Source: Candidatus Bathyarchaeia archaeon
GTDB taxonomy: Archaea; Thermoproteota; Bathyarchaeia; Bathyarchaeales; Bathycorpusculaceae
DNA length: 64,000 nt
Assembly (NCBI GenBank): GCA_049512935.1
Contig: JBEKWR010000001.1
Span: 157,791-221,790, forward strand
Direction: 5' to 3'
In this document: positions 54,939 through 60,187 of the stretch, one piece after another
Position numbering within the stretch: position 1 is the stretch's first letter
How the letters are laid out: every line of letters begins with the position of its first letter
Translations under genes and position numbers: made by a program
Notes under the pieces: generated by a model
Seen by the model: the letters and a program-made list of their open reading frames with translations, nothing else
What the model was told of the DNA's origin: nothing
Databases searched by the model: none

Positions 54939-55277
54939 ATGAGCGAAACCTTGGGAAGCTATCTACGTCAGCAACGGAAAACAAAACATCTGACTCTCAG
55001 AGATGCCGAGGAAAAAACTGGAGTCTCAAATGCCTACCTAAGTCAGCTTGAAAATGATAAAATAAGTGCACCGTCCCCGACCATTCTCCACAAGCTTGCG
55101 GAGTGCTTTGGGATTTCATATGATCAACTTATGAAATTGACCGGGTACCCAACAACGGAGCAAACAAAAGGGCCATCTTACCGGTCGGCAAGCGAATTTG
55201 AGAATCTAACGCTTGAAGAAAAAGAGAAGGTCAGGGAATACATCGAATTTCTCAAGTCAAGAAGGATTCAGCAATGA
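54939..55277 (+). CDS. XRE-family HTH repressor
   Basis: LG.YLRQ.R...LTLRD.E..TGVSNAYLSQLEN.K...PS. Confidence 0.92.
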   Translation: MSETLGSYLRQQRKTKHLTLRDAEEKTGVSNAYLSQLENDKISAPSPTILHKLAECFGISYDQLMKLTGYPTTEQTKGPSYRSASEFENLTLEEKEKVREYIEFLKSRRIQQ

Positions 55278-56245
55278 AGTGGTCCATCACCAAATCCAAG
55301 ACCTTTTCACATTGCCAGAGAAAGTGGTACTATTCTGAGGTTGTTGCAAGTCCAACTTCTAAGGACCCAATAAGGAGAGAAGCCTATCTGCTTAAGCAGT
55401 GCAAAAGTCTCCAAGCTTGGAGGGGAACTGTAGTGGATCAAGTGATTGAGAAATTTATTGTCCCTCAAATTAAGGTAAAGAGAGTACCTTCGGAAGCTGA
55501 AGTGATAAATTTCTGCAACACTCTTATGGATAGACAGCTAGCCTTCGGGAAAGAAGCAGCACACAGAAAACTGGGTATTTCAAAGTCAAAATCACCTGAA
55601 ACATATTGTGCATTTTACGATGTGGAATATGGGGGCTCTTTGGAAGAAAACAAGATAGAGGAAGCCAAACGAGAAGCTACTGATGCTTTGTTAAATCTTC
55701 TCCGCGATGAACTCCTGAACGATATAATAAGACAAAATTGCTATATAGTTGCACAACGCCCACTTTTTTTCAAATTGAACTACTTTTCTGTGTCGTGCAC
55801 TCCTGATTTGATAGTCTTCAACGATGAGGCACCGCAGATTATTGATTGGAAGGTTCACTCTTTTGGAAACGCCGATTCTTGGCTCCAACTTGGTGTTTAT
55901 GCTGTAGCCTTGACAAATGTAAAACCGCACAACGATTTCCCCGTAACTTTACAGAAAACAAAAAAAGCCTCAGATATCAGACTTCTTGAATTTCAACTTT
56001 TAAAGAACAAAAAACGCGAGCACTTTGTTTCGGAAGAGGATGAAGCTGACATATATGACTATATTTTCAAATCTTGTTTAGACATTGAAAAAATTGCTGG
56101 AGCTGGTAGCTATGAGGCACTCGACATAAACCAGTTTCAAACCGCCCGCTCTCCGAGGTTTTGCCAAAACTGCCCATTCAAGAAGCTTTGTTGGAGTCAG
56201 ACAAAGTCGCCGAGACTTCAACAGCTACTATTTGGGGATGAATAA
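55274..56245 (+). CDS. Cas4/RecB-like PD-(D/E)XK nuclease with Fe-S staple cysteines
   Basis: N-terminal C14 (HCQRKWYY), TPDL...IIDWK...QLGVYA, C-terminal CQNCPFKKLC. Confidence 0.88.
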   Translation: MKWSITKSKTFSHCQRKWYYSEVVASPTSKDPIRREAYLLKQCKSLQAWRGTVVDQVIEKFIVPQIKVKRVPSEAEVINFCNTLMDRQLAFGKEAAHRKLGISKSKSPETYCAFYDVEYGGSLEENKIEEAKREATDALLNLLRDELLNDIIRQNCYIVAQRPLFFKLNYFSVSCTPDLIVFNDEAPQIIDWKVHSFGNADSWLQLGVYAVALTNVKPHNDFPVTLQKTKKASDIRLLEFQLLKNKKREHFVSEEDEADIYDYIFKSCLDIEKIAGAGSYEALDINQFQTARSPRFCQNCPFKKLCWSQTKSPRLQQLLFGDE

Positions 56246-56247
56246 TC

Positions 56248-58632: not shown

Positions 58633-58634
58633 TA

Positions 58635-59036
58635 ATGGGAGATTTGGGTAACTACGCATGGAAATTCAATGCAAATAGTCAATCCCTGAAAGATTTTGAC
58701 GCAGTTCTGAGAGCTATAAGGGAAAAAAAGATTTTCGACTCCAAGGAAGATAATTCCGTAAAGAAACTCTTGAAAGTTGTCGTCCCAATTTCTGAGTCGA
58801 TCAAGGGAAATCTGACCGAATCAATAGTCATAAACGAACGAAATATAGTGGATATTATGAAGTCTAAGCATAGTGGAGAATGGCCGCAGTATCGAGAAAG
58901 ACTTTTGAATTTGGAATCGAAGCTGAAGATGGAAAGAGTGGTATTTTCTCAAAATGATTTGCAATTGCTAAATGACATCGCTGATGCCCTTGATGCTGAA
59001 TGTGCCAATTTGTTTAAGAGGATGAACGAAAGATAA
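58635..59036 (+). CDS. Small alpha-helical hypothetical protein in pAgo operon
   Basis: 133 aa; 2 bp after pAgo stop; TAATG overlap with next gene. Confidence 0.8.
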   Translation: MGDLGNYAWKFNANSQSLKDFDAVLRAIREKKIFDSKEDNSVKKLLKVVVPISESIKGNLTESIVINERNIVDIMKSKHSGEWPQYRERLLNLESKLKMERVVFSQNDLQLLNDIADALDAECANLFKRMNER

Positions 59037-60187
59037 TGAAAGATTACCTAAGAGCGCTGATAATTGAGCAGATAAATAGGGGACTTTGCCTGAAAGAGAT
59101 GGCTCAGTATAGAGAGTATCCTGTTTTGACAGGTCTAGCGGAACGCTGCAAAATGATTATCGACTCAAATATTCAGGATCTTAGGTTTTATTTAAGAGAG
59201 CTTGAAGGACGACAAGATAACGATTTAAGGGATCTTTTCCGTGATGTTAGAATCTGTATAAGAGAAATAGAATTAATTGAGTATTTCGGTATATCAGTTC
59301 TTCATTTTGAGACGCCTGATGTTGGTTATCTTAGTAACTTGCTTTTTAAAATACACAAAGAAATTAAATTACCGTTGAACCCTCCCGCAGTCGCTTGCAT
59401 TTCCACTAGATACTATTATTTTCATCCCTTCACAAACGTAATATTCGTTCCAGTTGGAGAATCAAGATTTCTTCTTCATTTGCCTGACGTTTTTCATGAA
59501 ATTGGGCATCAAGTATTAACTTACAAAGATAATGAACTCGCTTTAGTAAAAGTAGCCGATAATTATGAACAGGCCATAAAAAAAATCACTATTTATTATG
59601 AGAACCTTCGCAACCAAAAACTTAGAGAGACGGGCCCAAGATCGACACCGTTAATCCTTTCGAACATTCACTACCAATGGAAAACATATTGGATCAATGA
59701 ATTCTTCTGCGATTTGTTCGCTTTGTATACTCTGGGTCCAGCTTATGCTTGGGCGCATATCCATTTAACGGCAAAGAAGGCCGAGAATGTATACGAATTT
59801 TCTGAAATATTTCCAAGCAGTCATCCTTCCGACGAAGCCAGAATGAAAATGCTGATTATAGCTGTAAAAAAGATTGGTTTTGATGATACAGCGTCAATGT
59901 TGTTATCAAGATGGAACGATTTGCCAATTGTTCACAGCACTCAGCCAGTTACGGAATACCAGTATGCATACCCCGAAGACTTGATGAGTGAAATTGCAGA
60001 TCTCTTCTTGCAAAGTCTAAAGGACTCAGACTTTGCAATTATTTCTCGCAAGAGGTTGAATGAGGAGAAAGAGAGCATAATAAGCTTGCTTAATGAAGCA
60101 TGGACTTTGTTCAGAACGGATCCCCAGAACTTCATAAACTGGGAGGCTGTGACCGTTCAAAAACTCAAAAATGAACTGGGATCTTAA
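59036..60187 (+). CDS. HExxH zincin metallopeptidase-like protein (M48-like motif order)
   Basis: HEIGH (154-158), EFFCDLFA (E222), SHPS..AR (H263). Confidence 0.75.
   Translation: MKDYLRALIIEQINRGLCLKEMAQYREYPVLTGLAERCKMIIDSNIQDLRFYLRELEGRQDNDLRDLFRDVRICIREIELIEYFGISVLHFETPDVGYLSNLLFKIHKEIKLPLNPPAVACISTRYYYFHPFTNVIFVPVGESRFLLHLPDVFHEIGHQVLTYKDNELALVKVADNYEQAIKKITIYYENLRNQKLRETGPRSTPLILSNIHYQWKTYWINEFFCDLFALYTLGPAYAWAHIHLTAKKAENVYEFSEIFPSSHPSDEARMKMLIIAVKKIGFDDTASMLLSRWNDLPIVHSTQPVTEYQYAYPEDLMSEIADLFLQSLKDSDFAIISRKRLNEEKESIISLLNEAWTLFRTDPQNFINWEAVTVQKLKNELGS

Follow-up and report, generated by a model that had tools for sequence, protein, structure and literature searches.

A probable PliAgo-group Argonaute operon of an archaeon and the two conserved genes behind its Argonaute gene

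We analyzed a stretch of 64,000 nt from a Candidatus Bathyarchaeia archaeon (contig JBEKWR010000001.1), which is called the window in the following. At positions 54939-60187 it contains a block of five tightly coupled open reading frames (ORFs) on the plus strand, for proteins of 112, 323, 794, 133 and 383 amino acids (aa). We call these proteins P0001 to P0005 and assign the locus with high confidence to the operons of the PliAgo group of prokaryotic Argonautes (pAgos). The genes and the candidate control elements in front of them are:

54869-54886, no strand assigned: candidate distal operator, an 18-nt palindrome TGCTAA-N6-TTAAGCA from an inverted-repeat search
54889-54906, no strand assigned: candidate proximal operator, 18 nt, TGCTTGATAAACTTAACA, the best-conserved site of the pair
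54907-54914, plus strand: TATA-like box TTTAAATA, about 25-32 nt upstream of the ATG, with a putative promoter role
54939-55277, plus strand: P0001, 112-aa XRE-family helix-turn-helix (HTH) protein (Pfam HTH_3, 6.7e-14) with a conserved C-terminal helix
55274-56245, plus strand: P0002, 323-aa Cas4-family PD-(D/E)XK nuclease with four cluster cysteines (PADLOC Aga_Cas4-like_Nuc, 3.9e-98; Pfam PDDEXK_1, 1e-14)
56248-58632, plus strand: P0003, 794-aa full-length pAgo of the PliAgo group with the tetrad D572-E601-Q635-D771 (PADLOC pAgo_II, 3.5e-237; PliAgo structure 7R8F)
58635-59036, plus strand: P0004, 133-aa soluble helical protein with an acidic, near-invariant C-terminal helix LLNDIADALDAEC that includes an invariant Cys
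59036-60187, plus strand: P0005, 383-aa soluble protein with a zincin-like core at about 108-300, in which H154-E155-x-x-H158, E222, D226, H263, D266 and R269 are invariant

In the window sequence, the genes for P0001 and P0002 overlap by ATGA and those for P0004 and P0005 by TAATG, while gaps of 2 nt lie between P0002 and P0003 (TAA-TC-ATG) and between P0003 and P0004 (TAG-TA-ATG). The G+C content of the block was 0.394 compared to 0.470 in the remaining window; it was 0.479 in the 10 kb to the left of the block and 0.511 in the 3.8 kb to the right. The upstream neighbor is a GH57 gene (PF03065, 2.9e-84), and CbiZ (PF01955, 2.3e-46) is encoded two genes downstream. The archaeal origin of the contig is supported by its gene for ribosomal protein S8e, a family that among 14 control genomes was matched only in the four archaeal ones; a search for rRNA in the 93%-complete assembly gave no match. 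The original prediction, made from the letters of the DNA, had described five co-oriented, tightly coupled genes at these positions, in an AT-richer block between GH57 and cbiZ with no integrase. The ORF list, the junctions, the composition and both flanking genes agreed with this description, and the lack of an integrase held for the seven flanking ORFs of the window that were scanned. The predicted domains (XRE HTH, Cas4-like PD-(D/E)XK nuclease, long pAgo, small helical protein and HExxH protein) were supported by profiles, structure and alignments.

The closest solved relative of P0003 was PliAgo (PDB 7R8F), which aligned in a phmmer search over nearly the full length (4-789 with 3-780, E 9.6e-115). 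This alignment and the PADLOC match confirmed the prediction of a long pAgo; the Pfam Piwi model gave no match. The next solved relatives were 8xih and 9wmd (about 8e-61), the latter being the code given in the MbpAgo paper, followed by VbAgo. By this pairwise search, the nearest solved relatives of P0003 (PliAgo, MbpAgo, VbAgo) are catalytically active DNA-guided, RNA-targeting (D-R) pAgos. For PliAgo, the main text of Lisitskaya et al. (PMC9360449) gives the tetrad D563, E592, D626 and D762, the MID residues R467, H498, S501 and Y530 (with H498 and Y530 absolutely conserved among group members) and, beside tetrad residues, the lysines K565 and K759. The equivalents of H498 and Y530 in P0003, H504 and Y539, were kept in 38 of 38 relatives, and those of the lysines, K574 and K768, in 37 of 38. 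The positions of R467 and S501 varied among the relatives and are occupied by D and V in P0003. The sequence QRQGR of P0003 aligned with HRDGR of PliAgo, so that the third catalytic Asp is replaced by Gln (Q635) and the tetrad is DEQD instead of the canonical DEDD. Judged by its aligned residues, P0003 bears the hallmarks of the PliAgo group except for the third catalytic Asp.

Among 38 non-redundant relatives, from which the near-duplicates L048, L059, L072, L030, L065 and L078 had been left out, the third tetrad position was Q in 19, D in 18 and H in one, and the other three residues were invariant. The Q rows included a Bathyarchaeia genome (L001); the DEDD rows included RslAgo (L086), a copy on a Rhizobium plasmid (L087) and a Methanoperedens genome (L002). 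In a quick maximum-likelihood tree, in which L004, a distant outgroup, sits on a very long branch, the rows with Q or H formed one group of 20 with a value of 87 in the Shimodaira-Hasegawa-like approximate likelihood ratio test (SH-aLRT), and the distribution required two changes compared to a mean of 14 after shuffling. Because the Q and H rows form one clade, the substitution appears to be old and stable and not a recent defect. The DEQD clade retains all partner genes. The original prediction had regarded the pAgo as inactive and had cited the recruitment of partner effectors by inactive pAgos as established. The incomplete tetrad is in agreement with the first part, but recruitment of an effector by an inactive pAgo, the logic of the long-B systems, does not hold as a rule for the family, since 18 of the 38 relatives combine DEDD with the same partners.

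In P0002 the residues D178, D191-x-K193, Q205...Y209, C14, C297, C300 and C306 were kept in 37-38 of 38 aligned relatives. P0002 thus shows D...(D/E)xK, QxxxY, one N-terminal and three C-terminal cysteines, features that the main text of PMC12094033 states for the Cas4-like ACE nucleases. A sequence search of the PDB found no solved relative of P0002.

For the analysis of gene order, related metagenome loci were fetched with an alignment of the P0005 family. The best 80 of 223 loci were used, of which 75 were non-redundant. The five families were scored by tblastn and purpose-built profiles, and loci with enough upstream DNA were regarded as eligible. A pAgo gene was present upstream of P0005 in 39 of 39 eligible loci, P0004 in 61 of 63, and the HTH gene and the nuclease gene in 34 of 35 each. 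All five genes followed each other in the same order in 32 of 35 eligible non-redundant loci, an arrangement that is far beyond chance. The downstream genes therefore co-occur with pAgo homologs in a conserved order, as would be expected from the predicted five-gene operon. Among the exceptions, L019 and L018 contained only the 3' part of the pAgo gene, behind unrelated genes, and P0004 was 5'-truncated in L073. In L050, L075, L080 and L081 the P0005 copies were 5'-truncated; the truncated copy of L050 (2888-4018) lies directly against a DDE_3 (DDE) transposase gene and that of L075 behind an Eco57I-type methylase. Some cassettes decay through insertion sequences. The small ORF of L086 and L087 was too diverged for the first profile pass and scored 12.9 and 3.8 bits with the filters off.

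Searches of genomes with the pAgo as query found two loci, one of Bathyarchaeia and one of Methanoperedens, in which the gene order recurs with all partners that the contig allows. P0005 was present in both genome loci and in five of five plasmids found with the pAgo query, and in PLSDB the pAgo and the P0005 queries matched the same five plasmids. The RslAgo locus on pRUNSL03 of Runella slithyformis consists of the same five genes; the annotation names an HTH regulator and a PD-(D/E)XK nuclease and calls the other three products hypothetical. In the plasmids of Emticicia and Spirosoma (L090, L091) the operon starts with genes for a sigma-70 factor and a 180-aa protein, and on a cyanobacterial plasmid (L092) no regulator is adjacent to the operon. 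All three plasmids retain the nuclease and the pAgo, together with a small protein (128-145 aa) and an HExxH protein (381-387 aa). With filters off, their small proteins matched the P0004 profile over the full length (19-31 bits), and their HExxH proteins retain the motifs HExxH, W..EFxCD and HPxDxxRM. The protein following the sigma factor in L090 and L091 was considered as an XRE protein and rejected, as it gave only sub-threshold hints. Since P0004 and P0005 persist with a sigma-70 regulator or without a regulator, the alignments point to a conserved core of nuclease, pAgo, small protein and HExxH protein.

Besides HTH_3, P0001 matched the PADLOC models HTH_VI (9.6e-12) and capH (3.9e-9, residues 1-107). 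The proximal palindrome upstream of its gene abuts the TATA-like box, at the position expected for the archaeal B recognition element (BRE), and is found about 48-50 nt upstream of the ATG in most loci. Either TTTAAATA or TTTATATA is present at the equivalent place in most archaeal-type loci, and the position of the box would leave a leader that is short or absent. The layout with two palindromes and a TATA box recurs in related loci. With up to one mismatch, TGCTWR-N6-YWAGCA was found in 27 of 32 regions upstream of the HTH gene (33 hits in 3,840 nt), compared to 12 hits in 417,238 nt of the rest of the same loci; the pattern was derived from the very sequences counted, which makes the counts descriptive, and the contrast to the background is large despite this circularity. 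With up to two mismatches, all 32 upstream regions had one site and 24 of them had two. The Runella plasmid carries two perfect palindromes, TGCTTGACATATCAAGCA, which contain TTGACA. Because the operator motif is conserved, the simplest reading is that P0001 likely binds the two palindromes and represses its own operon, and this fits the earlier suggestion of an XRE repressor over the operon.

The two proteins encoded behind the pAgo are less easily placed. P0004 had no significant match in Pfam, NCBIfam or PADLOC. Its C-terminal helix and the Cys were conserved in an alignment of 49 relatives. The Atlas model reached a predicted template modeling score (pTM) of 0.75, and its nearest folds were helical bundles of the four-helix type (Hpt, TM-score (TM) 0.60).

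P0005 was modeled by AlphaFold2 (AF2) with a predicted local distance difference test score (pLDDT) of 93.4 for the full protein and of 91.0 for the core modeled alone. Four long N-terminal helices are followed by a three-stranded sheet, the HExxH helix, two long helices and a helical C-terminal part. The HExxH motif lies in helix 150-163, and E222 and D226 lie on the two long helices, E222 in the helix after next. An HExxH motif on a helix with an invariant Glu downstream is the pattern of zincins, and in the model E222 would be the third metal ligand. A membrane enzyme of the M48 type was considered and rejected, since no 19-residue window had a hydrophobicity above 1.19. Foldseek with the full model against the PDB was dominated by helical repeat proteins (E >= 0.46). 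With the core, the non-significant top rows were ZMPSTE24 (E 1.2, TM 0.39), PprI (E 3.2) and ArdC (E 6.4) in the PDB, and in BFVD a phage M48 peptidase (E 0.46) followed by an IrrE-like protein (E 0.8). When 32 relatives were compared to Pfam at E <= 10, no consistent family emerged, the commonest being INTS5_N in 5 of 32, and profile searches of PDB sequences with the P0005 family profiles gave only chance-level matches (E >= 0.23). None of these searches placed P0005 in a known zincin family. We consider it probable that P0005 is a zincin-like metallohydrolase, presumably a peptidase.

The P0005 family is large. We found 326 relatives at E <= 0.001 among 2,900 candidates, in archaea and bacteria, all of them unnamed or 'hypothetical' and none with a Pfam domain; the core profile collected 1,272 clusters at 50% identity, including 387 with E <= 1e-10. 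Two full-length relatives (P0173, P0148) carry a C-terminal CHAT caspase-like domain. The CHAT extension of P0173 was matched by Pfam (4.3e-9) and by PDB entry 8tl0, 'CHAT domain-containing protein' (6.3e-15). Five further relatives (P0313-P0316, P0168) have a C-terminal extension of 335-420 aa with no recognised domain. A paralogous archaeal HExxH family of about 397 aa has the core in common with P0005 (hhalign probability 97%) and touches Peptidase_M78 with an E value of 0.0036, which is below the cut-off.

Some side observations concern the same superfamily. A protein of 1,052 aa, P0317, combines domains of a type I restriction R-subunit with the C-terminal half of P0005 and may be a gene-calling fusion. 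In another genome of the genus (L089, G016:C9:26000-40000) a different pAgo (PADLOC PprPIWI, 3.4e-72) is preceded by a PLD-type nuclease and followed, in convergent orientation, by a paralogue of the P0005 core, which appears to be disrupted (291 aa from stop to stop, where relatives have about 397 aa). Farther on, a Cas4-like C-terminal fragment and a UvrD-type helicase are encoded. The locus may connect pAgos with this HExxH superfamily a second time. The 160-aa ORF beside the paralogue in G016 was considered as a relative of P0004 and rejected (hhalign probability 0.1%).

The operon is sporadically distributed. P0005 was present in one of 401 genomes sampled from the phylum, that of the window itself. 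A close pAgo was found in none of 36 genomes of the same genus, two of which had distant pAgos (E 3e-16 and 4e-4), and no relatives of P0005 were found in the viral contigs scanned. The flanks in the window are metabolic genes and do not form a defence island. A clean insertion between the neighboring genes was rejected: in relatives, the GH57 gene and the gene for a 301-aa protein downstream of the operon are either separated by 13 kb to 300 kb or located on different contigs, and the site is a synteny break and not a simple target site. On plasmids the operon is surrounded by CBASS, type I restriction, SIR2 and ubiquitin-like conflict genes, that is, by defence-island-like surroundings. Because of the sporadic distribution, the non-syntenic flanks, the plasmid neighbors and the low G+C content, the operon fits a horizontally acquired, mobile defence cassette. 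As to single plasmids, on those of Runella and Spirosoma (L086 8450-10629; L091 1-1416) the operon adjoins a set of multiubiquitin and ThiF genes (with DUF6527), and on that of Rhizobium (L087 8145-9104) a phospholipase activated by cyclic GMP-AMP (cGAMP) of a CBASS system.

A large part of this system has been described. An operon of HTH regulator, PD-(D/E)XK nuclease and pAgo was published for the PliAgo group in 2022 (Lisitskaya et al., PMC9360449), whose main text also gives a sigma-70 factor instead of the HTH protein for the sister PnyAgo group, and Cas4-family partners of pAgos are known (PMC6299218; PMC12094033). The original prediction had proposed an undescribed defence system. This was not borne out, since the group and its HTH-nuclease-pAgo operon are published, RslAgo is encoded in the same five-gene operon, and PADLOC has models for both the pAgo (3.5e-237) and the nuclease (3.9e-98). 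Known are thus the pAgo group, its biochemistry, the three-gene operon, the Cas4-family partners and the two PADLOC models. For the 133-aa and 383-aa proteins we found no account in the main texts or in literature searches, and both may stand unnamed in Fig. 1b or Supplementary Fig. 1 of PMC9360449. The same texts and searches gave no in vivo test of an operon of this group, and neither archaeal members nor the DEQD clade were mentioned in them. Judged by title and abstract, papers naming RslAgo, PnyAgo, HpeAgo or 'D-R pAgos' cover enzymology, structures or applications, and an Asgard Argonaute preprint contained nothing on this operon.

The window operon resembles the PliAgo group in a pAgo that is homologous over the full length, with 34% identity to RslAgo, in the upstream PD-(D/E)XK nuclease and HTH regulator, and in both downstream genes, which the RslAgo locus also has. 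It differs in its archaeal host and in the Gln at the third tetrad position, shared by a clade of 20; furthermore, the main text of PMC9360449 names the nuclease and the regulator but not the 133-aa and 383-aa proteins. The operons of L090 and L091, which we take to be of the PnyAgo type judging from the sigma-70 gene and the standard MID positions, share with the window the order of the core: nuclease and pAgo, then a small protein of roughly 130 aa and finally an HExxH protein of roughly 385 aa, in which the invariant motifs recur. They have a sigma-70 factor and a 180-aa protein in place of the XRE HTH protein, and their pAgo is 23% identical and lacks the equivalents of H498 and Y530. APACE1 (PMC12094033) likewise encodes a Cas4-family iron-sulfur (Fe-S) nuclease together with a long pAgo, and according to that paper ACE1 is a guide-processing enzyme (for DNA guides) that heterodimerizes with its pAgo. 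In contrast to the window operon, it has two genes, without HTH, small and HExxH proteins, and its pAgos cleave DNA with an intact tetrad.

We propose a chain of four steps, which, taken as a whole together with the identity of the operon, has in our view a slightly better than even chance of being right. First, P0001 would bind the two palindromes abutting the TATA box and hold the operon low, as suggested by the conservation of the motif. Second, by analogy to ACE1, the Fe-S nuclease P0002 may cut invader DNA and make or trim short single-stranded DNA (ssDNA) guides; such a guide-supply role is the authors' own speculation for the nuclease of the group (PMC9360449). Third, homology suggests that P0003 loads DNA guides through its PliAgo-type MID pocket and pairs with invader RNA; in the DEQD clade it would most likely bind without slicing or slice very poorly. 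Fourth, P0004 and P0005 would form the output arm, with P0005 as a putative soluble zincin metalloprotease and P0004 as its small partner. Recognition of a target by the pAgo would be coupled to the activity of P0005, and cleavage of a host or invader protein could lead to growth arrest or interference. This fourth step is the weakest, and we hold it tentatively, at somewhat less than an even chance. It is based on the persistence of P0004 and P0005 whatever the regulator, on the existence of CHAT fusions, and on the retention of all partners in the DEQD clade. In its most specific form, pairing of guide and invader RNA activates a new zincin protease family (P0005, gated by P0004) that cleaves a host or viral protein, and in the DEQD clade slicing was abandoned and the protease became the main output. 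A protease-coupled Argonaute in this full sense is conceivable and, in our estimate, rather unlikely to be right in every part.

Several points weigh against this proposal. P0005 had no match in Pfam, NCBIfam or PADLOC, and among its 32 relatives M78 and M48 were touched by one each (E 0.12 and 0.27). Foldseek against PDB and BFVD gave no hits at E <= 0.001, and the nearest named clusters in the ESM Atlas, Peptidase_U49 and M48, had scores of 0.78-0.79, which is in the range of chance. HExxH proteins are not all peptidases. The guide supply by P0002 is drawn from analogy only, the operator counts are circular as described above, and the best 80 of 223 loci represent the stronger relatives, with weaker ones outside the sample. 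Intact DEDD tetrads were present in 18 of 38 relatives, and PliAgo and RslAgo, which are DNA-guided and RNA-cleaving, slice RNA alone in vitro (PMC9360449), so that an extra effector is not obviously needed. In the published inactive mutants the first and third tetrad residues were altered together (PMC9360449); for this reason we regard a loss of slicing through Gln alone as likely and not as more than that.

P0005 could also act on the regulator instead of serving as output. On a signal of DNA damage, ssDNA or infection it would cleave P0001 and thereby derepress the operon, with P0004 as modulator. CapH/CapP, ImmR/ImmA and DdrO/IrrE are such pairs of repressor and protease, and the window operon resembles the first two by combining an XRE repressor that matches capH over its whole length (3.9e-9), including a conserved C-terminal helix, with an HExxH protein. 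The operators are conserved, PprI/IrrE and IrrE-like proteins are among the weak fold matches of P0005, its paralogous family touches Peptidase_M78 (E 0.0036, below the cut-off), and a protease at the end of the operon would give positive feedback. The main argument against this role is that P0004 and P0005 are kept when the regulator is a sigma-70 factor (L090, L091) or when none is adjacent (L092), so P0005 occurs without an XRE partner. In addition, it matches neither PADLOC capP nor Pfam M78, it is separated from P0001 by three genes, unlike in the known pairs, and the CHAT fusions better fit an effector. We consider a regulatory protease unlikely.

The nuclease could be the effector. In a system like BPAN, the impaired pAgo would sense its target and activate P0002 as a collateral DNase, resulting in abortive infection, while P0004 and P0005 would be minor accessories. 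Among the alternatives, this one comes nearest to the original prediction. The DEQD tetrad of P0003 and the intact active-site residues of P0002 are compatible with this, long-B pAgos do activate co-encoded PD-(D/E)XK nucleases (PMC10620215; PMC13535254), and BPAN itself (PMC10620215) shares with the window an impaired pAgo with a PD-(D/E)XK nuclease and possibly the abortive-infection logic. The BPAN effector, however, is encoded downstream and is RecB-like, whereas P0002 is encoded upstream and is of the Cas4 Fe-S type with four cysteines, like the guide-processing ACE1. Half of the relatives of the window pAgo are catalytically intact (DEDD) by their residues and have the same nuclease, and P0004 and P0005 are conserved as strictly as the nuclease. 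It is therefore not probable that P0002 is the effector.

A role of P0004 and P0005 before target recognition, in maturation or loading of guides, in product release or in a non-proteolytic metal chemistry at the HExxH site, appears still less probable. Both proteins also accompany slicing-competent pAgos, P0005 has no significant peptidase match, and HExxH enzymes of other chemistry exist (PMC12636437). On the other hand, PliAgo and RslAgo need no partners for DNA guide loading and RNA cleavage in vitro (PMC9360449), the weak fold neighbors of P0005 are all peptidases, and the CHAT fusions point to proteolysis. Silencing of host or mobile-element transcripts for gene regulation outside of defence, which the authors of PMC9360449 left open and which would suit the metabolic flanks in the window, is very improbable in view of the occurrence in one of 401 genomes of the phylum, the lack of a close pAgo in 36 congeners, the CBASS, restriction, SIR2 and ubiquitin-like genes next to the plasmid copies, and the low G+C content.

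RNA-targeting pAgos of the PliAgo and PnyAgo groups are under development as tools, and their natural function was only speculated on by the authors (PMC9360449). Such pAgos move together with a fixed core of four genes, two of which encode proteins outside known families. One of the two partner families is large (1,272 clusters), has a metalloprotease-like site and shows occasional caspase-like fusions, and a whole clade has lost the catalytic Asp yet kept every partner. This makes it a testable question whether an Argonaute signals to a protease, and the DEDD and DEQD relatives are a natural pair of active and impaired forms for comparison. If the protease-coupled reading is true, the operon would be the Argonaute counterpart of the protease arms in type III CRISPR systems. 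If P0004 and P0005 are only regulators, the locus would still represent a clean, conserved operator-repressor module that crosses the divide between archaeal and bacterial promoters.

A few minor features are present next to the operon. Between the GH57 gene and the operon, a 44-nt element occurs in two copies (54313-54356 and 54370-54413; 70% identical, 57 nt apart), each with a C-rich end; the pair could be what remains of a mobile element or attachment site, or be due to chance. A 29-codon ORF (54544-54633, plus strand) that precedes the HTH gene by about 300 nt encodes a zinc-ribbon-like mini-protein with two CxxC pairs, and the 92-aa ORF that overlaps it on the minus strand appears to be non-coding. 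The 301-aa protein encoded downstream of the operon (60289-61194, minus strand) reached only a sub-threshold match to DUF4015 and belongs to a family of which genomes of this genus have about four paralogues each; the 294-aa protein encoded at 62659-63543 on the plus strand, with 36% identity, is such a paralogue.

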